DNA from: a virus
IMG/VR virus record: IMGVR_UViG_3300035670_000033
Location: 32,001-96,000 of that record
DNA: 64,000 bases
Reading direction: 5' to 3' (one strand)
This document shows, in pieces, positions 575-21,650 of this stretch. The translations under genes were made by a program, and so were the position numbers. Within the stretch, counting starts at the first letter, position 1; each line of letters opens with the position of its first letter. Below the pieces are notes generated by a model, which had not been told where the DNA came from, ran no database searches, and saw only the letters and a program-made list of their open reading frames with translations.

Positions 575-1007
575 CAGACGAACTCTACACCCTTTTACTT
601 AAAAGGTCAACACACGTTGCCAAAATCAATAACTATCTTTTCCCGGCCGGACCAGTTAGAGGAAGTTATATCAGTGGTATCAACGTTGATGAAAAACAAA
701 AGGAACAAACACCAGTTAGTTAATAACTTTGGAGGGTTCGGGAACCTTTACCAAATCTTTTTTGGGGCGCGTGCAGCCGAAACAGGATCCGCGATTTTTG
801 ACAATCGCAGATTAAGATTTGATTATTGATCGCGCGCGAAAGGTTGTATACGCCACCGTGCATCTTAGATGCTTATCTGCGCTTACTATTTTTTTCGTCG
901 CAGTCCCGTGTGTGTGGTTGTAAAAGATAGCAGACCAACAGCCCCGCCGCACGCACGTTTCAAAAATAAACCACTAGTAACGTAATATTGTGTTCGCAAG
1001 TCCCGTC

Positions 1008-1173
1008 TACCCGCGGGTAACCACAACATGTTGTGGGTGCGGGATCGCGAAGCGGGGCTATCCCTAGAAATGTGCAGGCATGCAGGCGGGGCTATCAGGT
1101 GTTGATAGGGTGATAGTTATCGGCGGGGCTATGAAGACCCCCATCTGAAGGACTCGTCGTGGTAGCGGGGCTG
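1008..1173. repeat. Palindromes TACCCGCGGGTA (1008-1019) and CCACAACATGTTGTGG (1021-1036) plus iteron-like GCGGGGCT(AT) at 1052, 1086, 1123, 1165
   Basis: Read directly in a non-coding stretch. Confidence 0.8.
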
Positions 1174-5113: not shown

Positions 5114-5512
5114 TACTTCTCCTTGTTTAGTTAGGTTTATTTGCTTGCCCAATCAGTATGCCTCATGGGTGTAACACAGTTATTTTTAGTAGGGATTTTT
5201 TATTACTCTAACATTATATATAAGACAAAAACAAAAAGCAAGTATCGGATCAAAAAACTTGGAGCGATATTTAGAGCGATATTTAGTGCTAACCCGAGAT
5301 CAGATCACACACCCCAAAGCCCCCGATCGCTGTTGAGGTTTATATACGCCACCGTTCGGTTTAGATACAAGCAAACAACTCATGCTAAATAACAATCGTT
5401 GCAAACTAGACAGCCCCGCATCCCAACAGCCCACCCCGACAGCCCCGCCACTCGCGCGGAAGCGCGGGACTAATGCTCGCGAACAGTTGTTCGCTCAACT
5501 ACTATCGGGACT

Positions 5513-5899
5513 ATGACAATCTCCCGAACAGACAGATGGCAATATCGTTTCAATGCGCTCGTGCAATTCACCAACAGGACAGGTTCGTCGCTTGTTCCCG
5601 CAACACAAGTTGAGGTTTATGAGGGCAAGAATGTTGCGCTTGGTGCGTGGGTCGCATACAACCGTCAGCAATATCGTGCAGGAGAACTACCGATCGTGCG
5701 ACAACAAGCGTTAGAGCAACTTGCAGGTTGGCATTGGGAGAAGCAGAAACCTGGCAGACGCTACGACACGAAGCGAGACGCAGAGATCGCACAGCGTTAC
5801 AAGAGTGGCGAGCGTGTCGGACTGATCGCTGTTAGTTTCAATCTTTCACGGCAACGAGTTCATCAAATACTCAAGAAGGTTTCAACACCCAATGTCTGA
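5513..5899 (+). CDS. Helicase-associated (HA) domain plus C-terminal HTH protein, putative regulator
   Basis: W..RF..L..F....G...VP.......LG.WV...R..Y....L...R...LE.L.GW.W, followed by RDAEIAQRYKSGERVGLIAVSFNLSRQRVHQIL. Confidence 0.75.
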   Translation: MTISRTDRWQYRFNALVQFTNRTGSSLVPATQVEVYEGKNVALGAWVAYNRQQYRAGELPIVRQQALEQLAGWHWEKQKPGRRYDTKRDAEIAQRYKSGERVGLIAVSFNLSRQRVHQILKKVSTPNV

Positions 5900-6242
5900 T
5901 TTCAGTAACCATGACAAGCGTGATGCTTGGAAAAAGATGAGTGAGTGGTCTCACAGCATTCCTGATGATGAACTTGACAGTCTGTTTGTTGATGAAGATT
6001 GGGAAGACGAGTGGGCTAATCTTCCGCCCGTGTTGCGTGAAACACGCAGACAGGTATTCGGAAAGTTTATATTCGCTCTGTTTGGTTTATCTGTCGGCGT
6101 TGCTTTTGTGTCGTTCTTGTTGTATCAACTTGTTCAAGCGTTGGGTGTCACCGATCTAACTTTTCGTGAGTCTGTGATCGTCACATTGTGTGTTGCGTTC
6201 ATTCGTTACATTGACGCAGGAGTAATGAAACAGATCCGATAA
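5892..6242 (+). CDS. Hypothetical membrane protein
   Basis: Acidic N-terminus and two hydrophobic segments. Confidence 0.65.
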   Translation: MSDFSNHDKRDAWKKMSEWSHSIPDDELDSLFVDEDWEDEWANLPPVLRETRRQVFGKFIFALFGLSVGVAFVSFLLYQLVQALGVTDLTFRESVIVTLCVAFIRYIDAGVMKQIR

Positions 6243-6371
6243 ACACATCAGGACGCACTCTTGCGAGTGCGCCCTGAGCGGAGAAGCGAAAGGTGAAAGG
6301 AGAAGTCCTTTCGTTCCTCTAGCGGTAAAGAATAACATATGAGTTATATGTCATTCTGAAGCGATCAGGTT

Positions 6372-7868
6372 TTACCCCAATCGCTTTCCGTTTAGTCGTG
6401 TATATGTTTCCTGCCACTTTCTTGGATACCAACGGTTCGGTTTCTTTCCGACCGAAAGTTGCTTCAACAGTGCAAGTCCGTCATTCACATTGTGTGCCAT
6501 AAACACTTTGTGCTTCAAGACTTCTTTTATGCAGTCCATTGCCAAGATGTCGTGGTATCCACCGTATTGACCGCCTGTGCCAAGACCGTGAACCTGACCG
6601 TCTGTAATCCACACGATCGGAGTTGATGAACGCTTGCGTTGTTTGATCGCCCAACGAATTGCTTCGCCGTCTACGCCGTTGCCACCATTCCGTTCAGGAA
6701 GTTTGTCTACCATTTTCCCATCTTTTGCAAGAATGAGAAGGTTCGGTTTCACATTGTTTCGGTCTGCTGAATAAACCGCAACAGTGCAACCTGGACTTGC
6801 TTCCGTGATGTCAAGAATGTTTTTGTTGTTGAGAGACATTGAACCTGAACCGTCAATCAAGACGATACCGCCGTTGCCTTTCTTGTATCGGTCAAACACT
6901 CGCTTCTCGGGGTCTGCAAGTGCGTTACCAATTCTGCGAGGGTTACGACCCATGTTGCTTGCAACACGCTTGCGACCGAGACCGCCATGCGCTTTGCGAG
7001 TGAGTGGGAGATTACCAACAATAAGTTTTCCCCAAGTCGGTACTGCACCGCTACCTCGTTGTGAAGGTTCAGTCGGTTTTACTTTCTTTGGGTCTGCTTT
7101 CGGTTTCTGTGGTTTATCTGTTGCACCGTTGCCGTTCTTGGTTTCTTTTTCTGCGTTGCCTTCTTGCTTCGCTTCGTTCTCTTGCTTCGCTTCGGTTTCG
7201 CCGTCCTCGTTTTCGTTCTCATCAACAGGTGGGTTTGCCAAACGATCAATCCACTCTGCAATTCGCTCTGTGTGTGCGAACCCCATTGGTGCGAGACCTG
7301 TGCGCTCATCTATTTCTGTTGAACCGAGTGTGCCTGTCTTGTGTGCTTTGACGAACTCTTTCTCCACTGCTTTCACAATGTCTCGGAGTGTTGTTCCCCA
7401 TGCACGATTTACTCTGCGTACACCTGTGAGGAAGTCTTTGCCACCACCACAAACCGAGTAACCGACTGCTGTATAAACCGCACTCGCCCAATCGCCTTGC
7501 TCTGCGACACGCATTCCTGTAGTGAGTTCGCTTCCGTCTGCCAACAGATCAACATCAAACCCTGCTTTCTTGATAAGAAAGTTCACACGAACTTCCTCAA
7601 CAACGATCAGTGCATTCTCTGTTGCGATCTTGCGTTCAATCCACTTCGGGAAGTCGTCCGCAGGTGAGAACCGTGCGTGTGCCATTTCATGCGCACGGAT
7701 TACACGATCAACTTGTTCGTCACCAACAGGAACGACCATGTGCTTTGTAACAACATTGGTCATTGGTTTGCCACGAACAGGTGCGCAAGTATCTACTTGC
7801 CATGCGCCCGAGTCTTTATCTTTGCGCCCCAACATTTCGGGGAGTGGTCTGATTTCTACTTTTTGCAT
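6372..7868 (-). CDS. vWA-domain protein with N-terminal HExxH metallopeptidase-like motif (CobT-like)
   Basis: RAHEMAHAR; MIDAS motif LIDGSGSM; WITDG. Confidence 0.85.
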   Translation of the reverse strand: MQKVEIRPLPEMLGRKDKDSGAWQVDTCAPVRGKPMTNVVTKHMVVPVGDEQVDRVIRAHEMAHARFSPADDFPKWIERKIATENALIVVEEVRVNFLIKKAGFDVDLLADGSELTTGMRVAEQGDWASAVYTAVGYSVCGGGKDFLTGVRRVNRAWGTTLRDIVKAVEKEFVKAHKTGTLGSTEIDERTGLAPMGFAHTERIAEWIDRLANPPVDENENEDGETEAKQENEAKQEGNAEKETKNGNGATDKPQKPKADPKKVKPTEPSQRGSGAVPTWGKLIVGNLPLTRKAHGGLGRKRVASNMGRNPRRIGNALADPEKRVFDRYKKGNGGIVLIDGSGSMSLNNKNILDITEASPGCTVAVYSADRNNVKPNLLILAKDGKMVDKLPERNGGNGVDGEAIRWAIKQRKRSSTPIVWITDGQVHGLGTGGQYGGYHDILAMDCIKEVLKHKVFMAHNVNDGLALLKQLSVGKKPNRWYPRKWQETYTRLNGKRLG

Positions 7869-7956
7869 ATTTCCAACTTTCGTTTCTAGGTTTATGTCTC
7901 TTGCTTAGGGAGGCTTGCTTACACCCCCACCTTACGGCAGGGGTGTAACGAGGTTA

Positions 7957-8700
7957 TTAGACCGCAACCTTGTTGATTGCGATTGCGTCTAGGACGCTTT
8001 CTGCCTGCTTGCCGAACACCATTCGTGCGCTGTCTGCGTCACCGAGTGTCTTTCGCAGTTGGTCAAACGCATAGAAGGTGCGGAGTGAGATCCTGCGCTC
8101 GCCTGCGTCTGCCATACGAACCGCATACTCACGGAGATCTGCCGACAACTTCTTGAGTGCGTCAGGGTGAGGTTGGTTGATACGGATTGCGACAGGGAAA
8201 CGATCTTTCAACGCTTCAGGAAGTTCCTCCATTGTTTCAATGTTGGTGGTCATGACAACGCTGAACCCGTCCTTTGGTGTGATCGTCCGATTGTTTTCAG
8301 GACTTTCCCACTTCGCACTTTCAGGTGAGTCAGTGAATGCGAGGAGTGTTGCGAACACATCTGCGCCTGCTTTGTCAATCTCGTCAATTACGAGACGACC
8401 GCCACGCAAACCGTCACCTTTCCACGCTGACACTGCTTTACCGTCTACCCAAGACCAACCGCCTTCGCCGTTCATCTTGTAGTGACCTTCAACTTGCGCA
8501 TTGGACATATCCTCTGTGCAGATAAGTCGGAATGCACCTGCTGTGACATCACCGTAGTTGAGACCTGCGAAAGTCTTTCCTGTTCCTGGGGGACCGAATA
8601 AGATCAAACGGTCTACGCCTGCTTTGAGTGCGTTCTCAACATCTTTCCAACACTGTGGGAGATCGTTGCGCACCTTTCCTTCTAGTACTTGCTGTTCCAT
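7957..8700 (-). CDS. MoxR/CobS-like AAA+ ATPase
   Basis: GPPGTGKT Walker A, LVIDEIDK Walker B, TTN, ALKDRF. Confidence 0.9.
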   Translation of the reverse strand: MEQQVLEGKVRNDLPQCWKDVENALKAGVDRLILFGPPGTGKTFAGLNYGDVTAGAFRLICTEDMSNAQVEGHYKMNGEGGWSWVDGKAVSAWKGDGLRGGRLVIDEIDKAGADVFATLLAFTDSPESAKWESPENNRTITPKDGFSVVMTTNIETMEELPEALKDRFPVAIRINQPHPDALKKLSADLREYAVRMADAGERRISLRTFYAFDQLRKTLGDADSARMVFGKQAESVLDAIAINKVAV

Positions 8701-8802
8701 TACTTTCCTTCTTTCTCCGAAGTTCGTTCGGACTAGTTTGCTTATTTCTAGGTTTATTTCCTTACACCCCCAACATTACATTGGGGGTGTAACAGGGTTT
8801 AG

Positions 8803-9210
8803 TTACGCTACTTGCGCTTCTGCTGTTGCCTTGCTGTCGGACTTTGCGCCCTTGAGTTCGGTAACACGGATTTGCTCGTATGCCGTGATCGTGGTTACTG
8901 CGTCTGCGACATCTGCTTTGATTACGCCGACTTCCACTGCTGACTTGAACTTCTTACCGTCCACTGCGGACTTGGTAACAGTCTTGAACACCTTGTCGGA
9001 AACGAGATCCTTCAAGATTTCAACGCTGTATGAAGGACGCTCGCCTTTTACGACTGCAACCTTTACACCGTCTACGACTGCGTAGTCCACGCCTTCTTTT
9101 GCGAGTTCCAACTTGAAACTTGCTTCTGCTTGTGCAAGTTCTTGCTGTGCGATCTCTAATGCTTCACGCTTCGCAAGTACTGCCTTTGCTGTTGATGTGG
9201 TTAGTGCCAT
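8803..9210 (-). CDS. Hypothetical protein (coiled-coil N-terminus)
   Basis: 135-aa ORF with RBS and promoters. Confidence 0.75.
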   Translation of the reverse strand: MALTTSTAKAVLAKREALEIAQQELAQAEASFKLELAKEGVDYAVVDGVKVAVVKGERPSYSVEILKDLVSDKVFKTVTKSAVDGKKFKSAVEVGVIKADVADAVTTITAYEQIRVTELKGAKSDSKATAEAQVA

Positions 9211-9310
9211 TTGATTTTCTCCTTATGTCTAGGTTTATTTGCTTCTTGCCACCACTGTATATCAGGGGTGTAACACGGTTATTCGTACTGACTTTCTATC
9301 TATGATAGAT

Positions 9311-9339
9311 AGTCTAGTACCTGTTTTTGGACTTGTCAA
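9311..9339 (-). promoter_or_regulatory. SigA-type promoter TTGACA-17-TAGACT
   Basis: Consensus match. Confidence 0.75.
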
Positions 9340-9342
9340 GTC

Positions 9343-9594
9343 TTATGCGAGAAACCTCGCAATCCCTGCGTCCGTAAGGTCGTCCCCGATCTGACGCTTT
9401 GCGTCTAAGTCATTCAGGTACTCGCTGACGATCTCGCAGATTTCATCACATTGGTTCTGAATCGCTTCGTGACGCTCACGCTCGTCTGCGTCCTCTAAAG
9501 GGTTCATCACGACTGCGTACGATCTGAACGCCTGTGCGATCAACGCTTGCTCAATGCGCTCTAGTTGTGCTTCTGTGAATGTTGTGATTTTCAT
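9343..9594 (-). CDS. Hypothetical protein
   Basis: AAGGAG RBS. Confidence 0.7.
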   Translation of the reverse strand: MKITTFTEAQLERIEQALIAQAFRSYAVVMNPLEDADERERHEAIQNQCDEICEIVSEYLNDLDAKRQIGDDLTDAGIARFLA

Positions 9595-9844
9595 TTCTTA
9601 CTCCTTGTTTGTTGGTGTACCTGTAATACGCACGGTGACACGGAATGTGTGACAATCTTTTTTTGGACAGAGTCCAAAAGAGGTTGTGAATAACTCGTTG
9701 AGGTTTATATACGCCACCGTTCAGGTTGGGAGATGACAGTTCGGATCGCCGATCTCCGTGCGCCTGCGCCTGAGAGCCCCGCGTTGTTTACATCTTCCCG
9801 CAAGCCCCGCACCGCATCTTCGGGCGCGGGACTAGGCAAAAATA

Positions 9845-9870
9845 AAGGGGAGGCTTTCGCCCCCCCCCTT
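9845..9870 (-). terminator. Intrinsic terminator
   Basis: GC hairpin followed by a T-run on the minus strand. Confidence 0.6.
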
Positions 9871-9872
9871 GG

Positions 9873-10013
9873 TTAGTCCCAAGTGATCAACCCGTTTTCT
9901 GCGATGTAGGTTGGGAGTCCCATACTTTTCAGTTCCTCGTATGTGAAAGGAACTTCTTGGTTCTTGTTGATGTGATCAACATATCCCCTGTTTCTGAGGG
10001 CTTCGTCTGTCAT
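9873..10013 (-). CDS. Small hypothetical protein
   Basis: MTDEALRNRGY...; AGGAG RBS and own promoter. Confidence 0.6.
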   Translation of the reverse strand: MTDEALRNRGYVDHINKNQEVPFTYEELKSMGLPTYIAENGLITWD

Positions 10014-10182
10014 TGCTTCTCCTATGTGTCTAGTAGTTGTATCTCTTATACGCAATATTAGAGCAAGGGTGTGACACAGATAAATAGAAAACTTTCACGG
10101 CCGTGTGACATCACGCTTTATGTGACCGTGTGCGTTATATGTATGTAGGCAAAACCGCCTACCAAAGCGTTAGGAGAAGTAG

Positions 10183-10326
10183 TTGGAAATCAACTATGAA
10201 GCAATAAAAGAAATGACCCGTGCGTTGAAGCAAGAAATTGCAAGAAACGGGATCAACGAAAACAATTCGCAGTGGGTTCACGAAATGCGAGTTGCGATTG
10301 AACTTCGTGAAAGCGGTGTCTACTAG
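10183..10326 (+). CDS. Small hypothetical protein (47 aa, TTG start)
   Basis: TAGGAG RBS; MEINYEAIKEMTRALKQEIARNG...; followed by a terminator. Confidence 0.6.
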   Translation: MEINYEAIKEMTRALKQEIARNGINENNSQWVHEMRVAIELRESGVY

Positions 10327-10336
10327 AACCGCCAAC

Positions 10337-10373
10337 AAGACCCCAACTCGGAAACGGGTTGGGGTTCTTTTTT
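10337..10373 (+). terminator. Intrinsic terminator
   Basis: AAGACCCCAACTCG-GAAA-CGGGTTGGGGTTC then T-run. Confidence 0.8.
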
Positions 10374-10489
10374 GCCATAGCCCCGCGATCTGATGCGGTT
10401 GCCGCACAGCCCCGACATCCGATGCGCGACGCGGGACTGAGACAAAAGAAAACCCGCAGAAGATGGTTGGTCTCCTGCGGGTTCTTGAT

Positions 10490-10699
10490 TTAGTTGGTTG
10501 TTTCGCGGACTATCTGAAAACGATCGCCTTCTTCGGTAATCATTCCGAGAGTGCTTCCGTTGTCCCATTTGATGTGAACCGTGCCAAGTCCGTCAATGTG
10601 GGTTACGAGACCTTCGTCGCCCCACTTCAACCTCGTGTACGGGTCGCCTGACCGCATAAACATTACTCGCTTACCGACATAACTTTCTTTGTCTGACAT
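10490..10699 (-). CDS. DUF4314 family protein
   Basis: G.RV.....GDPY..L..G.EG.V..ID.LGTVH..WDNGSTLG...D.F. Confidence 0.8.
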   Translation of the reverse strand: MSDKESYVGKRVMFMRSGDPYTRLKWGDEGLVTHIDGLGTVHIKWDNGSTLGMITEEGDRFQIVRETTN

Positions 10700-10938
10700 T
10701 AGTAGACCCCGAAAGATATTCCGTCTGATGTCATTCCGAACAACGCACCTGCGTCGTTCCCTTCTGTATCCATTGACGGGTAGAGGATTGTTCCGCTAGA
10801 GAGAACGAGAACCATAGGGATTTCTCGTTTGCGCCAACCTTCTTTGTTCATTTCCGCTTTTGTCATTGGACGAATGTCAATGATTGTTGATCCGATCATT
10901 GAGTCGTCTACGGTTTCTGCTTCGTATGTACTGCTCAT
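10699..10938 (-). CDS. Hypothetical protein
   Basis: Coupled ORF with RBS. Confidence 0.7.
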   Translation of the reverse strand: MSSTYEAETVDDSMIGSTIIDIRPMTKAEMNKEGWRKREIPMVLVLSSGTILYPSMDTEGNDAGALFGMTSDGISFGVY

Positions 10939-10980
10939 GTGCTTTCTCCTTTGTTTAGGTTTATATGAAGCGTCTCGCTG

Positions 10981-11232
10981 TTACACGGACGCTTTTAGTG
11001 GTGACTTGATGTCTGCTAGTTCACGCTCTAACTCTGCACCTTCGCAGTTGTTCATAAGGTCAATCAAATTATCTAACCATGTTGCAACGGACGCAGGAAG
11101 TGGTGTCGTGCTGAGATAGTTGGTGTACTTGTTGAGTACGATGTCAATCTCGGTAACGAGTCCTGCTCCTTCAACATTGTTTGTGATGTCAAGGATTTCT
11201 GTGATTAGGTTGATGTAACTTTGCTTTTCCAT
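10981..11232 (-). CDS. Hypothetical protein
   Basis: ATG at 11232 with GAGG RBS. Confidence 0.6.
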   Translation of the reverse strand: MEKQSYINLITEILDITNNVEGAGLVTEIDIVLNKYTNYLSTTPLPASVATWLDNLIDLMNNCEGAELERELADIKSPLKASV

Positions 11233-11234
11233 TT

Positions 11235-11465
11235 TTATTTCCTCTCGTTTTGTTTTACAAATCTGACACACTCTTTTTTCGTGGACGCATTGAACGCCTG
11301 ATTGCCTGTTGCGATCTCAATAACAACCCACCAATCGGTTTTGGTTTCGTGAAACCAAACATCATTGAACCCTCTTTGCATAAACCGTTGGTGAAACCTT
11401 TCGCATTCAGGGTGTTCGCACGGTGACTCTTGGATCTCTTTTTCTATCCTGTAAGTGCTGTTCAT
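11235..11465 (-). CDS. Hypothetical protein
   Basis: AAGGAG RBS and own promoter. Confidence 0.65.
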   Translation of the reverse strand: MNSTYRIEKEIQESPCEHPECERFHQRFMQRGFNDVWFHETKTDWWVVIEIATGNQAFNASTKKECVRFVKQNERK

Positions 11466-11520
11466 TTCTATCTCCTTGTCTAGGTCTATATAGATATGTT
11501 ACCCAAGCGGTGTAGCAGGG

Positions 11521-11655
11521 TTATTCGCCCTGCCACCTGAACCCACGACACTCTCGCTTACTGCGCTTCTTGCGCTTGTCTGCGACACGCTGTGCCTTCA
11601 GGATATTGCGATCTGCAAACGCCTGACGATCTGCCTCACTCCATTGCTTGCTCAT
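11521..11655 (-). CDS. Small basic protein (44 aa)
   Basis: Hand-translated MSKQWSEADRQAFADRNILKAQRVADKRKKR...; coupled. Confidence 0.55.
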   Translation of the reverse strand: MSKQWSEADRQAFADRNILKAQRVADKRKKRSKRECRGFRWQGE

Positions 11656-12137
11656 TAGAACCTTCTCCTATTCTTTGTCCATTCGTGACAACTATGTTTT
11701 GCTTGCTCATCTACTTGCTCTTGTGACATTCCTGCCTTGATCAACGGACGGTATCCGCATGAGTTGCACGAAACGCCGAGGTACTCGGTGACACCTTGTG
11801 CGATCTGATATGCGTGAACGGTCGTGTTGCCGTGTGTGCGCTCATTCAGATAAACCGTGATGAACACTTCGCAATTCGCACAACCGATGATCTTGACATC
11901 TTTGCCGTCTGTTGGTGCTTGCTTTGGAAAGAAATCAAACTTGAAGTGTTTGCAGGTTTCGCACTTGTCATCAAGTTTGCGAACCTTTGCCACTTCTACT
12001 GCACCTTCGGTTACTGCTTTCCAATGTGCAGGAAGTATCCCTTTCTTTTGTGCTTGCTCAACGAGGTGGTTGCGAACCGCCCATTGTGCGTAAGGCTTGG
12101 CTACTTTTGTTGCCTTTGCCTTTTTGATCTTTGCCAT
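11655..12137 (-). CDS. Hypothetical multi-CxxC zinc-binding protein
   Basis: CETC, CANC and CNSC motifs; ATG at 12137 with AGGAG RBS. Confidence 0.7.
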   Translation of the reverse strand: MAKIKKAKATKVAKPYAQWAVRNHLVEQAQKKGILPAHWKAVTEGAVEVAKVRKLDDKCETCKHFKFDFFPKQAPTDGKDVKIIGCANCEVFITVYLNERTHGNTTVHAYQIAQGVTEYLGVSCNSCGYRPLIKAGMSQEQVDEQAKHSCHEWTKNRRRF

Positions 12138-12272
12138 TTCTAGTACTCCTTGTTTAGGTTTATCTAACTCGCTAATTACACTATATACGCAGGGTGTCAC
12201 ATAGTGTGTGATCTTTTTAGATCTAAATAATAAATATACTTCTAATATATCAGGGGCATAATATCCCCAACC

Positions 12273-12293
12273 TTGTCCACAGCCTGTGGATAA
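12273..12293. promoter_or_regulatory. Inverted pair of DnaA boxes (TTGTCCACA-GCC-TGTGGATAA)
   Basis: Both match DnaA-box consensus; AT-rich tract at about 12205-12262 is adjacent. Confidence 0.7.
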
Positions 12294-12690
12294 CTAGATC
12301 ACGCAACTCCATTTAGCACTAAGTCAAACGATCAGCAGGCTATATACGCCACCGTTCAAGTTGGGTGATGTCTTGATGTCTTGATGTCGGATCGCCCGAT
12401 CCCATAGCCCCGCGCCATCCGTCGCACGGCGGGGCTAACAAGTCTCGCATCCGTTCGCGGGGCTGTCGCCGTCGGATCTTCGGTTTGTTGGGATAGTGTT
12501 GGGATATGGCTATGCCCTTCAGTCCCAAGCATTCCACTAACTTGCAGATCGGCGAAGTTATTGACGCGCTCGCGCAAACTGAGCCCGATCTATTTGGTGA
12601 AGGTAACGCGACACTAATGCCCGTGCAATACTCTGATCGTCTCGCGTTAGTGATATGCGATCGTTCGCTAGGGGAGTCCATAAACGCTAA

Positions 12691-12720
12691 TAGCCCGCCT
12701 GCCTAACGGCGGACGGGCTA
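12691..12720 (-). terminator. Hairpin, probable terminator
   Basis: TAGCCCGCCTGCC-TAAC-GGCGGACGGGCTA downstream of a gene. Confidence 0.65.
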
Positions 12721-12736
12721 CGACACTGCGGACTAT

Positions 12737-12979
12737 TTACTTATTGCGTTGCGACTCTGCCCATAGGTGACGGAATACGAACGCAGGTATCGCGTTGCCG
12801 TCATCCGTGAAGTAGTAACCATTGTCAAGTGTTGAATGATCGGGGATAGTGACGATCCGTCTATTGCTAACGCGACCACGATACCAATATCCAATGATAA
12901 AGATATTGTGATCGCTTGTCGTCTCCCATTGCCAACGCGAAGTGCCGACATATCCCTTATAGGTGAGTTGCGTTGTCAT
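12737..12979 (-). CDS. Hypothetical protein
   Basis: Coupled ORF. Confidence 0.65.
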   Translation of the reverse strand: MTTQLTYKGYVGTSRWQWETTSDHNIFIIGYWYRGRVSNRRIVTIPDHSTLDNGYYFTDDGNAIPAFVFRHLWAESQRNK

Positions 12980-13191
12980 TACTCAACCGCCTGAATCATC
13001 GCGAAGATAGACGGAGACGCCGTAGTGATTCCGTGCGCGTAATCCGTGACTAGGTGCAACATATAATTGTCGCGTTCGTCCTGATCCCATGTCTCTGCCC
13101 AAGTGGTGCGATCGTTGTCGTCCCAATTCATTGTTGAGTTAATGAATATCTCTGCCTTCGTTGGTGGAGTTGAGTTGAGTGTGTATCTCAT
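12979..13191 (-). CDS. Hypothetical protein
   Basis: ORF with RBS. Confidence 0.65.
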   Translation of the reverse strand: MRYTLNSTPPTKAEIFINSTMNWDDNDRTTWAETWDQDERDNYMLHLVTDYAHGITTASPSIFAMIQAVE

Positions 13192-13299
13192 AATTTGCCC
13201 TTCGTGTAGTAGTTGTGTTGGTAATCGGCTTGCGCCTTGTGCCTAGTTGGAATTGAATCCCACGCCGAACGCGCTAGGCGACTCACCTAAGTGAGTGTG

Positions 13300-13749
13300 T
13301 TAGATCGCGACCGCTTCGCTGTAACGAAGTGTGCCATCGCCACCCATTGCGATCTCGGTCGCGCGTAACCATAGGTCGCGCACGACTTCATTACCGCGTG
13401 CCCACGAAGTTAAACATCCGAGAACTTCAGTCTCAAACTCCGCGAGTGCTTTATCCGAGTATCGCTTAACCGACTTACGGATAAGAGTTGCGAACGGATA
13501 ATTTACGCGATCGTAAACACCAACCAATTCACTTGTCTGATCGTAGTGTCGCAACGCGATGGACGACATGAGTTGCTTATTATCCGCATCGTGCCAAATT
13601 GTGATACGCACTAAAGTGCCCATTGGTCTGCCATCCACTTCAACCGAGTCACAAGTCGGACTCTTAAGTGTGTAGGTGATCTCGCGATCTTTAACCTTGC
13701 GTGTCGCTTGCGCTAACACTGTATTGTGACTAACAATTAAATTACTCAT
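13300..13749 (-). CDS. Hypothetical protein
   Basis: GGGAG RBS and own promoter. Confidence 0.7.
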   Translation of the reverse strand: MSNLIVSHNTVLAQATRKVKDREITYTLKSPTCDSVEVDGRPMGTLVRITIWHDADNKQLMSSIALRHYDQTSELVGVYDRVNYPFATLIRKSVKRYSDKALAEFETEVLGCLTSWARGNEVVRDLWLRATEIAMGGDGTLRYSEAVAI

Positions 13750-13836
13750 TATTTATCTCCCGTGTCTAGTTGGTTTATGTTTATTACTTACTATCTATAT
13801 TACGCAACGGGTGTTGCATAGTGTGACATTGCCTGA

Positions 13837-14112
13837 TTAGTCATGATCTGCGAGTTTGACCCAATGCATACCGACCCAACCATCAGGTGTGCGCATTGAG
13901 TTCAGGTGTCCGCCTTCAATGATTGAACGGATAAGACTGAACAATTCCCGCGACAAGTCGTCTCGCGTAATATCCATTGCGTCTACCCATTCATTGTCGT
14001 AACGATTCTGCGTAAGATCGTCAATTACTGATCCAACGATCTCCATGCCGATCGCGCCGATACCGAGATAATTCTCTGCCAATACTTCGCTTAGTGATTC
14101 ATCTAGTGCCAT
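13837..14112 (-). CDS. Hypothetical protein
   Basis: RBS and own promoter. Confidence 0.7.
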   Translation of the reverse strand: MALDESLSEVLAENYLGIGAIGMEIVGSVIDDLTQNRYDNEWVDAMDITRDDLSRELFSLIRSIIEGGHLNSMRTPDGWVGMHWVKLADHD

Positions 14113-14700
14113 GTCTATTCCTTGTCTAGTAAGTGTAAGCGTTATTGCTTACTCCCCAATAATACGCAATGGGTGTTGCAGAGTGTGACATTGCCATTCT
14201 GCAATATCGCGTATCCGCTATATCCGTGATCCGATATCTACGATCCGATATACGGTTTATATGCGCTACCGTTCAGGTTGGGGACTTGGATCGGCGATCC
14301 GCCCGCCCGCGTGCGCCCGCGAGCCCCGCGCGCTAAATGGGGGCGCGGGACTGTCAAGTTTTTTGGGGCAAACAGTAGCGTTTGCAGTGTCGCCTTACCC
14401 TCCTGTGACGCATATGAGCCCCGCGTGTTTACACGGGATGCGGGGCTGTGGGCAGGGGAGCCAGAGCCGCGGGTTGGGGAAGCCGCTGAGCGGCTTCGCC
14501 GTCGGTATCTGTATCTGAACTGAGACAATTACGAGAACCTGCCGCGCACTCAAACAATCGTTGAACACTATTCTGAACGCGTTACCGACATTGCAGTGGT
14601 TAGAACTCGCGTGAGAAGTAGCGTCCATGATGTGTGAGTGGCACGGTGCGCTCAACCTAGATAGCCGTGAGACGCACTACAAGCCCCCTAGAAACGCAAA

Positions 14701-14726
14701 AGCCCCCACCCCGAAGGGTGAGGGCT
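14701..14726 (-). terminator. Intrinsic terminator
   Basis: AGCCCCCACCC-CGAA-GGGTGAGGGCT with a T-run on the minus strand. Confidence 0.7.
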
Positions 14727-14747
14727 CGCGCCTGCGTTAGGAACTAA

Positions 14748-15236
14748 CTAGATGTTCCTTGCGCACACGGGTCCGATACCCCGTGCTACCGAGTTTGGGT
14801 CGGAAAGTTCCGCACCACACACGCAACAGATACCGAACTCATGCCCTGCCTCCTGCGCCTGTGCGAGGGTCATGCGATCCTCTGCGGAGAGACGGAACAA
14901 CCCGCCACGCTCGTAGGTGAAACGCTCTGCCTTGACAGGTGCGAGAGGGTTGTAACGCATTGCGTACAGGTTGCCTGACTGCCGTGAACGCTTTACACGG
15001 AACACAACGCCGTCCTTGCGGTACATACCGATCTCGGTAACAGGGTTTGCCTGTACGACCCGTGCAGGACGATTCATGTTGCGCTCAACCGCCTGCAACT
15101 GCTTGTCGGATAGACGACCGAAACGATCGTAACCATTGAGGACGCTCGTAAAGAATGCATTGCCAAGTGCGTTGTCACGCAGGAACTGAACTACACGCTC
15201 CTCACGGGTGAGTGGTGGAAGTGTCTGAACTGACAT
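14748..15236 (-). CDS. DUF6011 domain protein
   Basis: C-terminal CCVCGAELSDPNSVARGIGPVCA. Confidence 0.75.
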   Translation of the reverse strand: MSVQTLPPLTREERVVQFLRDNALGNAFFTSVLNGYDRFGRLSDKQLQAVERNMNRPARVVQANPVTEIGMYRKDGVVFRVKRSRQSGNLYAMRYNPLAPVKAERFTYERGGLFRLSAEDRMTLAQAQEAGHEFGICCVCGAELSDPNSVARGIGPVCARNI

Positions 15237-15804
15237 AGGTAACTCGCTTTCGTTAGTAGGTTTATTTGCTTACCCTGAATATACGCACAGGGTGTAACAG
15301 AGTGTGCGATACCCGATCGGGGGCGCAGATCGCAGGCACGGCGTTCACCGCAACCTGACAAACCGATTCCGTTGCATGGCTGAGACTTATATCCGCCACC
15401 GTTCAAGTTGGGGACTCAGATCCGCGATCCGCCTCCGCGCTACGCGCCCGCCCGCCCCCACAGCCCCGCGAACTACGCGGTCACGCGGGACTATCAGCAT
15501 CAGCAGAAAGAAGAAGACAAGCCCAGTTGGGAACGTTCCGGCTGACGTCCCGGCGAACGTCATCAAAAACGTTACTTTTTACGCGTTTTGAAAAACATCA
15601 ACTTTTGCTAATTTTTCTGGTTTTTTGAAAGCCTTATACCATAAGGGTTTTACGGGGTGACTTATTGAGGTTTGTAGAAGAAACGAATAAACTGTCAGAA
15701 AGAACAACTTTTTGGGACTCCGGCTGCCGGGCTGGTCTTCAGCCAGTTCCGAAGATGGGCTGATAGCCCCGCGTTATTGTCTGCGCGGAAGTTTGACGCG
15801 GGAC

Positions 15805-16005
15805 TTAGAAGAGAGTTGGCGCATCGTCAAATGCGTTGCGGGTTTCGGTGCAGATTTTGTGTGCGTAACCGAGTGGTGCTGAAGGGTTCCGAGGCGTCCC
15901 TAAGTATCTGCCGTCTTTGTGTTCTAACCAAGCGACAACCTTGACGCAGTATGCCGTGTTCAGGGTGTCTAGCCCTGTGTTGCAGATGGAGCAGGTGACT
16001 TTCAT
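15805..16005 (-). CDS. Small zinc-finger-like hypothetical protein
   Basis: CSIC...HKIC. Confidence 0.6.
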   Translation of the reverse strand: MKVTCSICNTGLDTLNTAYCVKVVAWLEHKDGRYLGTPRNPSAPLGYAHKICTETRNAFDDAPTLF

Positions 16006-16230
16006 TTATGCGGTTGCTTCTGCCTTTAGTGGTGCGACGATCACGGAAAGTAGATCTTCTACAGGGAACTGTAGGTCACTATGCGACCTGATGTCAAGGA
16101 GTAGATCAACCATTTCCGATGATGATACGAGTTCACGACCCGAGATCTGTTTGATCGCGCTGTCAATGAGTTCGGTGATGGTGCTAATTTTTTGTTCTGT
16201 TTCCAAGAGACTTCTTCTTTCTAGGTGCAA
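16006..16230 (-). CDS. Hypothetical protein
   Basis: ORF in operon (start uncertain). Confidence 0.55.
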   Translation of the reverse strand: MHLERRSLLETEQKISTITELIDSAIKQISGRELVSSSEMVDLLLDIRSHSDLQFPVEDLLSVIVAPLKAEATA

Positions 16231-16384
16231 TAGTTGGTAGATAGTTTATCGCATAATCGTAAGTATGACGCAGACAAACGATGTGGTCGTTGTACACCGA
16301 GAGTGCTGTAGAGCACCCTTCTAGTGCACAACGACGAACGCCGTTGCCATCTGTTTTGGGTTTGAGAACGGTGTTACTCTCCAA
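16184..16384 (-). CDS. Small zinc-binding hypothetical protein
   Basis: RRCALEGCSTALSVYN....C..H. Confidence 0.6.
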   Translation of the reverse strand: MESNTVLKPKTDGNGVRRCALEGCSTALSVYNDHIVCLRHTYDYAINYLPTIAPRKKKSLGNRTKN

Positions 16385-16823
16385 GTTTCGCCCACTCTTC
16401 GTCGCCGATGAGTTCTGATGCTTGCAGTATTGCTTCCTCTATATCAAAGTGCACGCAGTTCAACCAACCCGCTTCACCAACTGTGTCGTCGTCTGCGTAC
16501 AGATCAAACCATGCGTTGTTGTCAAACTCAATGCGTTCTTCGTCTATTGCTTTCTGCAACTGCTCATCTGTTTCAATGCCTACTTCTGCGAGACGGTCGG
16601 AGTATCTGATCACCTGATAGTTCGCATTGTCAATGCGCGCTTCTTTGCTGTCCCAAACATGGAGACGCATTTCGCCATCGCAGTAAACGCTGATGGTGCG
16701 GTCTTTGTAGGTAACCCGTGCCACGAGTTGGTGTGCATTTGCGTCCCAAACATAGAACGCAGGGTCTTTGCAGAACTCTCGCTCATGCGGTGACTGTTCT
16801 CGGGTGATAATTAGGTCTTGCAT
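16374..16823 (-). CDS. Hypothetical protein
   Basis: AAGGAG RBS and own promoter. Confidence 0.7.
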   Translation of the reverse strand: MQDLIITREQSPHEREFCKDPAFYVWDANAHQLVARVTYKDRTISVYCDGEMRLHVWDSKEARIDNANYQVIRYSDRLAEVGIETDEQLQKAIDEERIEFDNNAWFDLYADDDTVGEAGWLNCVHFDIEEAILQASELIGDEEWAKLGE

Positions 16824-16878
16824 TACTTCTCCTTGTTTCTAGTAGTTGTACCAAGAGTAATACGAGGGTGTTGTACGG

Positions 16879-17082
16879 TTACGCCTTTCCTAACAACGCC
16901 AATGCTTCATCTATTTCTATGGTGGTCTTGATGGAGTGATCGCCGTCGTATGCAACGGTGACATAGTTTGCGCCAACGGACGGGTTCTCTGCGAGATCGC
17001 AAATAGACCCGTACGCTTGCGCAACTGCGTCTAAATGGTTGTCTGCTTCATAGACCATTGACCAAGTGACGATGTACTGCAT
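16879..17082 (-). CDS. Hypothetical protein
   Basis: ATG at 17082 coupled to the upstream stop. Confidence 0.6.
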   Translation of the reverse strand: MQYIVTWSMVYEADNHLDAVAQAYGSICDLAENPSVGANYVTVAYDGDHSIKTTIEIDEALALLGKA

Positions 17083-17294
17083 TAGACGGACAGACTTTCC
17101 TGCCATGAAAACATTGGTGAAACACCGAACTCGTCTTTTACGGAACGGGTGCTGACTTCAACATCAACTTTGTATTGCTCTAACGATGCGAGGATATCTG
17201 CAAGTTCCGCCTTGTCGGTTGCGATGCGGTAACGCAACTCGTGCATACGGGTATTTAGGGTCTCAAATGTTTGCTTTTTGTTACGGAGTTTCAT
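17082..17294 (-). CDS. Hypothetical coiled-coil protein
   Basis: Coupled ORF. Confidence 0.6.
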   Translation of the reverse strand: MKLRNKKQTFETLNTRMHELRYRIATDKAELADILASLEQYKVDVEVSTRSVKDEFGVSPMFSWQESLSV

Positions 17295-17680
17295 TACTTA
17301 TCTGCCTTTCGGTCTGCTTGTGGGTCTCTTATTTCATACTGACGACCTTCTCGTTTTACGAAGATGTCAGGACGATCTTGAACGATCTTGCGGACGGTTG
17401 CTTCTGATATGTCGCCAATTTCCGCAAGTTCTTTTACTGTCACCAAGTCAAAGACATGGTTTTTGCACCAAGACAAGATGTCTTGCTTGCCGTCTTGTGC
17501 CGTGCGCCAACCTTCACTTGGTTGTGCCTGTGCCAAGAGTTCTGCCTTGATGTTGTTTGGTACGAGATCACGGACACGCTTAGGTACTTGCGCAACCCAA
17601 ACAGGTTTCCCATAGGTGTTGATCGCTTCAGTAACTTCGCGTATCGCGTCGTCTAGTTGTGTGTCTACTTCGTTGCTCAT
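17294..17680 (-). CDS. Hypothetical protein with C-terminal HTH
   Basis: VTVKELAEIGDISEATVRKIV; leaderless start just after a -10. Confidence 0.65.
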   Translation of the reverse strand: MSNEVDTQLDDAIREVTEAINTYGKPVWVAQVPKRVRDLVPNNIKAELLAQAQPSEGWRTAQDGKQDILSWCKNHVFDLVTVKELAEIGDISEATVRKIVQDRPDIFVKREGRQYEIRDPQADRKADK

Positions 17681-17724
17681 AGTGTCTACTATACGCAACG
17701 GGTGTGACAAAGTGTGTGATCCCA

Positions 17725-18006
17725 TTAGAACGGTTCTGCTGTTCGCATGGACTCAGGTACTACAAGTGCGCTTTGTGCTTCGTTCAGTACCGTCATTGTC
17801 TGAGAAATGATGTTGCTGGTTTTTAGTACTGCGCCCTTGAACACCGCTGACTGTTCTTGTGTGCCAACTCGTGATAGTTCTTGTTCAAGAACTTCGTAAA
17901 TGCTGTGTATCGCTTTCTCAATGCGACTCAAACTTGCTGAGTCCGCATCAAAGATCTGTGCGAGTGTTTGTGTTCTTTCCATCTGCTTTTTATATACCCC
18001 TTTCAA
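17725..18006 (-). CDS. Hypothetical protein
   Basis: ORF; start may be ATG 17982; TTGACA at 18047-18052 upstream. Confidence 0.6.
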   Translation of the reverse strand: MKGVYKKQMERTQTLAQIFDADSASLSRIEKAIHSIYEVLEQELSRVGTQEQSAVFKGAVLKTSNIISQTMTVLNEAQSALVVPESMRTAEPF

Positions 18007-18217
18007 GGTCTAGGTTTATCTAACAGTATCATTATATACACGGACTTGTCAAATAGCAACCTCGCCACAAACAAATGTTCGCCCACCCCTCCCAAAACTT
18101 TTATATAAGCCACCGTTCGGTTTGGGGTAATTCTTCCCCCTCCTGCTGTTGGGGCAGATCTCGCCCGCCTCCCTAGTCCCGTCGCGGATTTCTTCCGCGG
18201 GGCTGTAAAACTTTGAC

Positions 18218-18271: not shown

Positions 18272-18871
18272 ATGATTCAAGAAGAACTAAAAGTTTTAGA
18301 AGAAGTCACTAAACAATGGGTTTTGTGGCGCAAAAATAACAACATTCAGAAGAACTCGTGCATTTTGGCGTGCAACTTTGCGCATCAACTGCTGATCCGT
18401 TTGGGTTTGGAACACGAGGTTATTCCCGTCGGGACTACAGTCTTCAACCGCAAAGGGTGGGAGATGTTTGGGATCCCTGCCAACCGACTTCCTGATGATG
18501 CGTGGACAGTCCATTGTTCAAGCCAAACAACAGGTTCAGGTTTTGGTGGACACACCGTAATACATACGGAGAACTACTTTCTAGATTTGACGGCATTGCA
18601 GTTTTCTCGTCCTGAGCACGAAATCTTCGTCGGAGAAACCTTGATAGTCCCGTTAGAAAAGATGGAAGTCTTTGAGCGGGGCTCACAACCTCACGCAATT
18701 CACCTTGCGTTCCGTACCGACAAGTTTTGGACTTTCCCGATCGGTTCAGGTTTGTATTCGTACTACCTAGAGAAGTGGAACACGATCTACCGTAAGTCAC
18801 CCGATTGGAACATCTCGGCAAAGGAGTTAGGTATCCCGAGCATTATTGAGGAAATGCGGAAGGGTTCTTGA
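18272..18871 (+). CDS. Hypothetical protein, possible papain/transglutaminase-like Cys-His-Asp fold
   Basis: NSCILA ... GGHTVI ... LDLTALQF. Confidence 0.55.
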   Translation: MIQEELKVLEEVTKQWVLWRKNNNIQKNSCILACNFAHQLLIRLGLEHEVIPVGTTVFNRKGWEMFGIPANRLPDDAWTVHCSSQTTGSGFGGHTVIHTENYFLDLTALQFSRPEHEIFVGETLIVPLEKMEVFERGSQPHAIHLAFRTDKFWTFPIGSGLYSYYLEKWNTIYRKSPDWNISAKELGIPSIIEEMRKGS

Positions 18872-19715: not shown

Positions 19716-21650
19716 GTGTCAGAGAAATACCTCTTCCTAGCCGACGACCATTTAGTCTCAACCTCGCCATACGACCGAGAAGAAGTTGAACAAATCAAAG
19801 CCATCAACGGCGCAAAGTGGGACAAAGTAGCCAAAGCGTGGCGTATCCCAATGTCTTCAGTTGTTGAAGCGCGGGACTTCGGAATGCGCAACGGGTTCAC
19901 CATAGACCCTCAGGTTCTGACATTTGATCTTCCTGAGAAACTCAACCCAATCTTCGGTGTCACCCTAGAAAAAGACTTTATTTATATGTCCTTTGCTTAC
20001 GACCCTGTGAAAGTCAAAGCAGTCAAGGAGATTCCGAGCGTAACTTGGCACGCAAAAACCAAAGCGTGGCGTGCACCCGTAGCAAGTATCGCCGAATGCA
20101 TCAGTTGGGCAGAGAAGTTCAACCAACAAGTCCCAAACAACCTGAGTGATTTGGCTTCCAAACTCAAAGAAACACACGACGCTTCCGTGCAACAGTCCCG
20201 ATCCGTAGATGCGGATCTAGAAGTCGCGGGACTCCCACTTCTTCCATACCAGCGAGCCGGAGTGAAATACGCGTCAGCAGCCAAAAGATGCTTTATTGCT
20301 GATGACATGGGACTCGGGAAAACCTTGCAGGCGATTGCAACTTTGGAATATGTTTGGGATTCCTACCCTGCGATTGTTGTTTGCCCACCCAACTTGGTGT
20401 TGAATTGGCAGAAAGAATACGCCAAATGGCTACCTGAAAAGAAAGTCGTAACGGTTATAGACCGCAAAACCTTCCCCGAACATAAAGACTTTGATGTTCT
20501 TGTTATTGGATACTCTAACATTTCTCATTGGCAAAAGCAAATCACCAACTTCAGGTCACTCGTGCTTGATGAGTCACATTACGTTAAATCTCCAACGTCT
20601 CAGAGAACCAAAGCCGCCATCAAGATCGCCAGAACAGTCCCGAGTGACGGAATCGTGTTGTGTCTCACCGGAACACCTGTGACAAACAGACCAGCAGAGT
20701 ACGCATCTCAGTTAGACGTTCTGGGGAAACTAAACACGTTTGGTGGACTTTGGGGTTTTTACCGAAGATATTGCGGTGCTTTCAGAGACAGGTTTGGTCA
20801 ATGGAACATCAACGGCAACTCAAACTTAGATGAACTCAACGAAAGATTACGCGGAAACTGTTATATACGAAGAACCAAAGAGCAGGTCCTCAAAGATCTT
20901 CCTCCCGTGCGGCACGCAAACATCGTCGTGTCTGGTAGCCCCGCGCAGATGGCGGAGTACCGTAAAGCAGAGCGGGACATCGTGGAATATTTGGTTGAAC
21001 GCGCCAAGCAGATCGCGTTGGAAATCGGTAAATCGCCTGGGTCCGCAGCCGTCGTCGCACGCATAAAAGCCGAATCTAATGAACATTTAGTTCGTATTTC
21101 TGTGCTCAGGAAGTTGGCGGCAAGGGCAAAGATGGAATCAGTTATTGAGTTTATTGAATCTCACAGAGATGCTGGTTTGAAAGTGGTTGTTGCGGCTCAC
21201 CACCGAGAGATTGTTGATGAATTGGCAAACAAGTTTGGGGGGCTGAAGATCCAAGGAGGGATGCTGGTCTCAGATGTGGAAGATGCGAAGTCCCGTTTCC
21301 AAGAACAGCCGACGGAAGACGCACCCGTAATTGTTTTGTCCATCCAAGCCGCCAAAACCGGGCACACCCTGACGGCTGCCCAAGATGTTCTTTTTGTTGA
21401 ACTTCCTTGGACACCCGCAGATGTTGACCAAACCTATAGTCGTTGCCATCGTTTGGGACAGCAGGGTTCTGTGACCGCAACCTATTTGTTGTGTGAAGGA
21501 ACTGTTGATGAGGAGATTTACAACCTGATCAGCCGCAAACGTGGAGTCGTTGATGCGGCGACTGATGGCGGGGCTGTGGAGCGAAAGCAGGAGTCGGTTG
21601 GTCAGATGATTGTTGGGATGTTTGCGAAGAGGGGACTTGATGGCATATAG
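19716..21650 (+). CDS. SNF2-family (HARP/SMARCAL1-like) ATP-dependent helicase
   Basis: ADDMGLGKT, DESH, LTGTP, AAKTGHTLT, Q.YSRCHRLGQ; N-terminal HARP-like repeats. Confidence 0.92.
   Translation: MSEKYLFLADDHLVSTSPYDREEVEQIKAINGAKWDKVAKAWRIPMSSVVEARDFGMRNGFTIDPQVLTFDLPEKLNPIFGVTLEKDFIYMSFAYDPVKVKAVKEIPSVTWHAKTKAWRAPVASIAECISWAEKFNQQVPNNLSDLASKLKETHDASVQQSRSVDADLEVAGLPLLPYQRAGVKYASAAKRCFIADDMGLGKTLQAIATLEYVWDSYPAIVVCPPNLVLNWQKEYAKWLPEKKVVTVIDRKTFPEHKDFDVLVIGYSNISHWQKQITNFRSLVLDESHYVKSPTSQRTKAAIKIARTVPSDGIVLCLTGTPVTNRPAEYASQLDVLGKLNTFGGLWGFYRRYCGAFRDRFGQWNINGNSNLDELNERLRGNCYIRRTKEQVLKDLPPVRHANIVVSGSPAQMAEYRKAERDIVEYLVERAKQIALEIGKSPGSAAVVARIKAESNEHLVRISVLRKLAARAKMESVIEFIESHRDAGLKVVVAAHHREIVDELANKFGGLKIQGGMLVSDVEDAKSRFQEQPTEDAPVIVLSIQAAKTGHTLTAAQDVLFVELPWTPADVDQTYSRCHRLGQQGSVTATYLLCEGTVDEEIYNLISRKRGVVDAATDGGAVERKQESVGQMIVGMFAKRGLDGI

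Follow-up and report, generated by a model that had tools for sequence, protein, structure and literature searches.

What reads a 31-bp inverted repeat that recurs at constant internal spacing through the early region of a large uncultured phage genome, and does it act as duplex DNA, as RNA or as a junction for recombination? The question is raised by the stretch analysed here (the window, 64,000 nucleotides), which comprises bases 32,001-96,000 of one 138,071-bp virus record, IMGVR_UViG_3300035670_000033, with 46% G+C. The repeat, AGYCCCGC-N15-GCGGGRCT, is called the dyad below, and each of its arms a half-site. The repeat is a real feature that departs strongly from chance and is conserved among a clade of relatives. 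On balance, it is probably an operator-type site in duplex DNA for a sequence-specific protein, and a candidate reader is encoded beside one of the copies. Relatives were collected by an IMG/VR pattern scan and later protein-guided scans, and they form a clade of 118-172 kb contigs. G001-G003 show 70-88% DNA identity, and G004-G010 only 38-48% identity in the candidate reader, a protein with an HA domain and a helix-turn-helix (HTH) that is referred to as HA-HTH.

The window holds the following dyads and dyad variants:

5441..5471, minus strand: dyad AGYCCCGC-N15-GCGGGRCT, flanked in a divergent region by the core at 5347 (minus strand; a second repeat, described below) and by the HA-HTH gene
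9803..9833, minus strand: dyad, directly after a canonical intrinsic terminator (9869-9844, minus strand)
10408..10438, minus strand: dyad with one arm mismatch, directly after the terminator 10485-10449, with no core downstream
12406..12436, minus strand: dyad, both arms of the C type
14322..14352, minus strand: dyad, proximal member of a tandem pair
14417..14447, minus strand: dyad, distal member of the tandem pair
15462..15492, minus strand: dyad, arms invariant in five relatives, spacer drifting
15765..15805, minus strand: long-spacer dyad (25 nt), kept in G001, G003 and L099
18175..18204, plus strand: variant dyad of 30 bp with a 14-nt spacer and one mismatch, flanked divergently by gene 17725-18006 (minus) and gene 18272 (plus)
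18646..18683, unstranded: 38-bp dyad variant with first arm AGTCCCGT, inside open reading frame (ORF) 18272-18871 and also present in L008

According to shuffled sequences, 0.00 matches to the pattern are expected, compared with the seven observed, and the spacer is exactly 15 nt in all seven. Chance or artefact as an origin was ruled out by these shuffles together with the Markov expectation. The seven fixed-spacing copies proposed by a first-pass annotation of the window were all recovered (5441, 9803, 10408, 12406, 14322, 14417, and 15462), and its two off-register variants, 15765-15805 and 18175-18204, are real as well. As for individual copies, the orthologues of dyad 5441 in G001-G003 keep the arms and drift in the spacer, and the first arm of dyad 15765 overlaps the stop codon of the upstream minus-strand ORF. 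Apparent counterparts of dyad 18175 in G001 and G003 have a 24-nt spacer, their orthology being inferred from position and partial spacer similarity.

Half-sites also occur outside the dyads:

5412..5419, unstranded: third half-site, in direct orientation, 29 bp from the arm of dyad 5441
940..1172, unstranded: non-coding half-site array with four direct members (1052, 1086, 1123, and 1165) and one inverted member (940)
19871..20233, plus strand: two single half-sites (19871 and 20226) in the helicase gene, kept in relatives at only 68% DNA identity

Across the complete genome of 138,071 bp, all 35 exact half-sites lie in window positions 940-29415 and none in the other 108 kb, compared with second-order Markov expectations of 1.07 for 940-29415 and 3.8 for the whole genome. 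Single half-sites are thus present as the first-pass annotation listed them, and the right half of the window is free of them, as it had stated. That annotation missed, however, the third half-site 28-29 bp from the dyad, which has equivalents at 9775, 10379, and 12457, and the four-copy direct array at 1052-1172; the array region 940-1172 is conserved in G001-G004. Counted over six genomes, 114 of the 172 exact half-sites belong to no dyad, and their flank bias is the same as that of the dyad arms. Single half-sites are equally frequent in both orientations (14 forward, F, and 13 reverse, R, in G000; 25 and 25 in G005), and the F-then-R order is preferred only at short range, with ~110 cases versus 7.

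The half-site core AGYCCCG is clustered in one region of ~30-35 kb in all relatives (ten related genomes). In distant HA-HTH-bearing contigs the motif at first appeared to be absent, but whole-record scans found clustered sites elsewhere in these genomes. Arms of orthologous dyads are 94-97% identical, compared with 66% for spacers and 53-73% for the 20-bp flanks, and both the triple half-site arrangement and the direct array are conserved in relatives. Spacer length at orthologous dyads shifts between 15 and 16 nt, and total dyad length is characteristic of a lineage: this phage, G001, G004, and G005 have 31 bp, G008 has 32 bp in 9 of its 13 dyads, and G007 has 33 bp. The lengths of 164 unique dyads are bimodal, with 118 at 30-34 bp, 32 at 38-41 bp and few at 35-37 bp, so that the two modes differ by about one helical turn. 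The spacing that the first-pass annotation described as constant is tight and lineage-specific (31, 32, or 33 bp, and a second mode about one turn longer). In G008 the dyad also keeps a fixed distance of 40-41 nt upstream of a promoter-proximal box.

Distant relatives also contain another repeat family, specific to the lineage, namely GGTAGATAAGT in G008 (L213) and GGTGTAGGTAAGT in G007 (L212). It forms inverted pairs after genes and occurs singly near promoters, and in G008 one copy is fixed 40-41 nt downstream of each dyad. A further dyad, at L214:7747-7792 (G006), has a 32-nt spacer around the LexA-box-like palindrome GCGAACATATGTTTGC.

A natural substitution experiment is provided by L135-L137, in which every exact half-site reads AGYCCCGT (14/14, 11/11, and 14/14, respectively) and none reads AGYCCCGC, the reverse of what is found in the other lineages. 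The switched sites include both dyad arms, third half-sites, array members and singles, and they occupy positions orthologous to those of the window at the same spacings (+23, +28, and +52). Their HA-HTH protein is 80% identical to that of the window. Since neither independent drift nor gene conversion acting on 8-bp units can produce such a concerted switch, it calls for a trans-acting, sequence-specific reader whose specificity would have changed in this lineage.

The repeat thought by the first-pass annotation to form a composite element with the dyad, here called the core, and the associated blocks are the following:

5347..5357, minus strand: core GAACGGTGGCG, strand-specific in the early region
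538, 851 (one mismatch), 1293, 1825, 2397, 9712, 12347, 14264 (one mismatch), 15394, and 18108 (one mismatch): other cores
9744..9754, unstranded: GATC-N3-4-GATC palindrome between dyad and core, with others at 12390, 14289, and 15419
15278..15306, minus strand: proximal promoter-like block, CACACTnTGnnACACC then TGCGTAT(A/T)(A/T)(T/C), kept in relatives

Twelve copies of the core CGCCACCGTTC were counted, 8 exact and 4 with one mismatch, versus 0.84 expected, and all of them are on the same strand. The part ACGGTGG(C/T)G of the core is confined to the early region (538-18118, minus strand), with 11 copies compared with 0 on the opposite strand. Six dyads indeed lie 48-84 bp to the right of a core (5347/5441, 9712/9803, 12347/12406, 14264/14322, 15394/15462, and 18108/18175), and the GATC-rich sequence reported between the two corresponds to a GATC-N3-4-GATC palindrome in 4 of these six gaps. 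"Right of the core" is correct in window coordinates; in the sense of transcription, however, the genes are on the minus strand and the dyad is upstream of the core. Cores 538, 1293, 1825, and 2397 have no dyad.

Read along the minus strand, the composite opens with the preceding gene's end, which twice carries a textbook terminator; then come the dyad, usually as AGTCCCGCG ... CGCGGGGCT, and the third half-site 28-29 bp on. These are followed by a G-rich stretch, the GATC palindrome and a 27-bp motif, CCCAAC-y-TGAACGGTGGCGTATATAA; 60-110 nt further on stands the block CACACTnTGnnACACC then TGCGTAT(A/T)(A/T)(T/C), and finally the next gene. Copies or partial copies of this proximal block are found at 9623-9632, 12193-12208, 13810-13825, and 14159-14187 (minus strand). 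Several early start codons have this block 25-45 nt upstream, and it is probably a proximal promoter with a TAnnnT-type -10 element. As for the core, candidate roles are a promoter or a 5' untranslated region signal. In distant relatives (L121/L122, L212, and L213) it reads TGACGGTGG(C/T)GGAA and sometimes stands directly 5' of the Shine-Dalgarno-like GGAAAGGA. A strict start-associated sequence was ruled out, the distance to the next start codon being 9-276 nt. A sigma-70 promoter was rejected as well: the sigma-70 scan gave no site at any core, and the core belongs to a 27-bp motif that is not of sigma-70 type. A phage-encoded T7-like RNA polymerase or sigma-70 region 2, which could account for a promoter role of the core, was looked for and not found.

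According to the operator reading, the half-site AGYCCCG(C), 7-9 bp long, would be recognised by a protein, with a dimer or two copies bound to the inverted half-sites. Centre to centre, these half-sites are separated by 23-25 bp, slightly more than two turns of the helix, and the spacer would not be read but would act as a ruler only; the additional half-sites (the third one at 28-29 bp, those of the direct array and the single copies) may represent further occupancy or cooperative contacts. In this phage and its relatives, most early gene units have a dyad upstream. The dyads mark the upstream edge of each early regulatory cassette, after the terminator of the prior unit and 50-125 bp upstream of the core and proximal block. 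Given this position, the most likely role of the protein is joint control of the early and replication genes as a single regulon, through upstream activation or through silencing or insulation of units. The anatomy, the conservation, the concerted switch and the spacing rules are results of the analysis; a protein reader on duplex DNA, its identity and the effect of its binding on transcription are interpretations of them.

Two features of the window bear on the identity of the reader:

5513..5899, plus strand: gene of the HA-HTH protein (128 aa), candidate reader
5480..5493, unstranded: perfect palindrome CGAAC-N4-GTTCG, the only one in the genome, preceding the HA-HTH start codon by 19 nt

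The HA-HTH protein is found in all ten genomes examined. In Pfam, the window protein matches the HA domain (6e-14), and its C-terminal HTH gives weak matches to HTH_28 and HTH_7 but none to Mor. Conservation is highest in the helix LSRQRVHQI, which resembles sigma-70 region 4.2. This helix is invariant across the clade, as is the AGYCCCG core of the half-site, a suggestive pairing. Some homologues carry precomputed Sigma70_r4 or Mor Pfam hits, the latter in two of them (PF08765), and the Joint Genome Institute (JGI) names some as Mor family, with Foldseek giving 1rr7 at an E value of 1.4 only. The best PDB sequence match is a KorA-domain HTH protein (E 0.04). The AlphaFold model has a predicted local distance difference test score (pLDDT) of 86, and its fold matches generic HTH proteins (resolvase, Mor, and Mos1) at E > 0.1. 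In the subclade of the window, half-sites are placed at about -101, -72, -49, and -8 of the HA-HTH gene. The protein, with its KorA/sigma-4-like HTH, is the leading candidate for the reader of the half-site, a tentative assignment that we consider possible rather than probable. Other DNA-binding candidates are a weak HTH_17 match in ORF 17294-17725 and the ParB_N protein 32203-32976, neither of which is tied to the motif. As a side observation, HA residue 24 is Arg in L135-L137 and Gly in all other aligned homologues; G24R is the only HA-HTH change specific to the switched lineage, a single case that may be coincidental.

The first-pass annotation had put forward this protein as a binder of the dyad, and it is a reasonable candidate; the palindrome that accompanies its gene across the clade, however, is a LexA-type box and not the dyad. 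CGAAC-N4-GTTCG is kept upstream of the HA-HTH gene in distant relatives and has the form of a Gram-positive/actinobacterial LexA SOS box, for which the Streptomyces consensus is tCGAAC-N4-GNNCGa (PMC9380542). The idea that it is the operator of the HA-HTH protein itself was dropped on that account. A LexA-type box at this place suggests that the regulator gene may be SOS-gated, and with three to four half-sites beside the box the regulon as a whole would come under host DNA-damage control. Together with the TAnnnT-type proximal blocks and the actinophage-like helicase, the box suggests an actinobacterial host.

Several observations weigh against an operator with this reader. All dyads can be folded at −13 to −21 kcal/mol. 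In sense orientation, a T in the upstream arm usually faces a G in the downstream arm, giving a U-G wobble instead of C-A; this is seen in ~20 dyads with one exception in G004, and an RNA hairpin would allow it. The dyads of G006 and G010 vary widely in length (38-46 bp), more than a rigid dimer would accept, and this was counted for a hairpin. Nearly all intergenic gaps of G007 and G008 contain exactly one dyad, with singles being rare, as is also expected of intercistronic RNA signals. Distances from dyad centre to core (86, 87, 96, 119, and 122 bp) have no clear helical phasing, and gene positions are ORF heuristics, not gene calls. As for HA-HTH, its association with the motif is confounded by shared ancestry, its recognition helix LSRQRVHQI stayed the same in the lineage with the position-8 switch, its linker length has no correlation with dyad length across lineages, and G007 and G008 have no dyad near its gene. 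Much of this would suit a scenario in which the arms pair in minus-strand transcripts and form a terminator or attenuator, a 3'-end stabiliser or a processing site, similar to the promoter early stem-loops (PeSLs) of T4-like phages, possibly read by a sequence-specific RNA-binding protein or nuclease. Hairpins are usually more stable on the sense strand, since position 3 is U-G there and C-A on the other, and dyads do follow gene ends, dyad 15765 even overlapping a stop codon. However, the loops are of unrelated sequence, 15-17 nt long and fixed in length by lineage, and there is no excess pairing beyond the arms: spacer positions 9-12 are Watson-Crick in 22-26% of dyads, which is the random level. 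Two thirds of the half-sites, including the conserved direct array, have no partner arm and were nevertheless switched in concert with the paired arms, and in most G008 dyads read position 8 is C opposite C. For dyads 5441 and 18175, the location is a divergent promoter region ahead of a plus-strand gene, where no upstream gene ends. No T/U-run follows the dyads, none of them was reported by the terminator scan, separate canonical terminators stand just upstream of dyads 9803 and 10408, and Rfam gives no match at the dyads (E up to 1). The dyad as an intrinsic terminator was rejected, the T-run being absent and the loops being at least 15 nt; the wider hairpin explanation is regarded as rather unlikely. 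The view of the first-pass annotation that the spacing points to a protein or recombinase site and not to an RNA hairpin is supported for a protein site by the concerted switch, the singles and direct repeats, the lineage-specific length and the lack of excess spacer pairing, which together are stronger evidence than the constant spacing by itself, and finds some support for recombination.

Between relatives, homology breaks within 10 bp (<=10 bp) of a dyad edge account for 8 of 90 internal break points, compared with 2.2 expected (P ~0.001), and this clustering indicates that dyads also mark cassette boundaries. Window 9730-10400 has no counterpart in G003, where a single chimeric element with three half-sites remains, matching the 10408 copy on its left and the 9803 copy on its right. 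An insertion of 1.3 kb in G003 has a dyad on one side and a degenerate dyad on the other, and in G001 and G002 gene 14748-15236 is replaced, with one boundary at dyad 15462. These cases would be explained if dyads were primarily recombination sites, at which a recombinase or repeat-primed exchange shuffles early ORFan cassettes in an integron- or PeSL-like manner and regulation is secondary. Against this, a tyrosine recombinase was searched for and not found, the region has no known serine-recombinase catalytic domain, and HA-HTH has only 128 aa. A conserved island beside fast-evolving filler, moreover, stops an alignment at its edge with or without recombination, and neither the half-sites in conserved genes nor the direct array is explained. 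Dyads that are recombination sites in the first place are very unlikely; recombination is a secondary reading, compatible with that of an operator. A combination of both, in which the dyads are cis sites of a host-LexA-gated master regulator and at the same time junctions for exchange of early ORFan cassettes, in a clade of large uncultured, probably actinobacterial, phages and comparable to integrons but with no known recombinase, is judged quite unlikely as a whole. A replication role was also considered, with the sites as initiator iterons or, in the manner of plasmid prophages, as scattered centromere sites for the ParB_N protein 32203-32976. The direct-repeat array combined with inverted copies of the same half-site, the presence of a ParB_N gene with no integrase found, and the location of all sites in or near the replication module, in a GATC-rich region with one DnaA box, would agree with it. 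However, the array is irregularly spaced (34, 37, and 42 bp), the ~ten dispersed dyads each head a transcription unit, no AT-rich unwinding element or initiator gene was identified beside the array 1052-1172, the lone perfect DnaA box is near chance expectation, and nothing links the ParB_N protein to the motif. This explanation is highly improbable, and the multi-copy origin suggested by the first-pass annotation is not supported: with direct repeats irregularly spaced at 34-42 bp and dyads at the upstream edge of transcription units, origin function is unlikely.

As for the genome setting, PHROG and Pfam scans identify a helicase, a primase, a single-stranded DNA-binding protein (SSB), a ribonucleotide reductase (RNR), DNA methylases, a RuvC-like protein and the ParB_N protein, which marks the record as a phage. 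No integrase, sigma-70 region 2 or T7-like RNA polymerase was found in the genome, and megablast against GenBank phages gave no close cultured relatives; the helicase reaches identities of <=36% to actinophage proteins. From 1 to ~18,000, long ORFs, negative AT skew and canonical terminators all indicate the minus strand, and rightward genes follow from 18,272 on. Within the minus-strand region, cassette 9873-10400, which is absent from G003, contains a plus-strand intrinsic terminator (10339-10366) that points to a small transcript running rightward. The early region has twice the GATC density of the rest (153 copies in the first 20 kb versus 166 in the remaining 44 kb), and DNA methylase genes are located at 30721-31440 and 38470-39852. 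Positions 15500-15760 form ~260 bp of non-coding sequence between two dyads, whose blocks and small hairpins (e.g., CCCTTAT-GGTA-ATAAGG) are kept in five relatives; this segment could be a small RNA or another cis element. A DnaA box, TTATCCACA, is found at 12285-12293 (minus), downstream of core 12347, and is followed by a partial inverted copy. The genes of the ParB_N protein (257 aa, 32203-32976) and of the RuvC-like protein (33314-33841), both on the minus strand, are located just to the right of the half-site region. As no integrase was found in the genome, a plasmid-like carrier state is conceivable.

Dispersed repeats are common in phage early regions, as in the case of start-associated sequences (SAS) as well as extended start-associated sequences (ESAS), PeSLs and the stoperators mentioned in PMC12266134, and the function of ESAS/SAS is still described as unresolved (PMC3203893, PMC12699233). 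The clade analysed here offers natural experiments in which every half-site is rewritten at one base, the distance between arms is reset by 1-2 bp or by one turn, and a candidate regulator carries a LexA-type box. These lineage variants make both the reader protein and the geometry testable, and would reveal the way in which early genes are coordinated and reshuffled in a large uncultured phage.

The element lacks defining features of SAS/ESAS, PeSLs, phi29 p4 sites and stoperators and is a member of none of them, but each resembles it in some respect. The closest system in architecture is SAS/ESAS of Cluster K mycobacteriophages, in which SAS is a 13-bp asymmetric repeat that occurs in one orientation in the non-structural half of the genome and abuts the start codon, and ESAS are imperfect 17-bp inverted repeats with a 4-13-bp spacer, directly upstream of about half of the SAS copies (PMC3203893, PMC12699233). 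Both systems combine a short repeat of one orientation in the non-structural half with inverted repeats of variable spacer, and both undergo genome-wide lineage-specific base changes. In contrast to ESAS, arms here have 7-9 bp, the spacer is tightly fixed at 15-17 bp and the dyad stands 48-84 bp from the core, which itself is 9-276 nt from the next start codon; the sequences are unrelated.

PeSLs of T4-like phages, where the stem-loop is the terminator itself and the promoter has a sigma-70 consensus (PMC2839356, PMC4122927), are closest in cassette behaviour. Similarly to the present case, they are intergenic composites of a stem-loop-capable and a promoter-like part in a plastic early region of small ORFans, and deletion leaves a chimera, as observed for the G003 hybrid with its break points at dyads. 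The repeat in the window, however, contains no sigma-70 promoter and no T-run, has a 15-nt loop, many unpaired half-sites and separate terminators, and its core is not sigma-70-like.

Regarding site geometry, the closest system is phi29 p4, whose 4 sites of the form CTTTTT-N15-AAAATG are bound by their A-tracts with bending (PMC3100819). Inverted arms 15 bp apart, an unread spacer, slight asymmetry, a position far upstream of the promoter and multiple copies are common to both. Arms and spacers in the window, in contrast, are GC-rich and have no A-tracts, there are ~10 sites and many half-sites, and no p4 homologue was identified in a survey that included no search aimed at p4.

Finally, IncP KorA/KorB, P1 C1 and the Cluster A stoperators all represent one regulator acting at many short sites over early or maintenance genes. 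KorA operators are compact 12-bp palindromes, and stoperators are asymmetric 13-mers in a single orientation relative to transcription. The half-sites described here, by contrast with stoperators, are equally frequent in both orientations, and it is a KorA-domain protein that gives HA-HTH its best PDB sequence match. The KorA, P1 C1 and stoperator regulons are thus the closest to the idea of one regulator with many sites.

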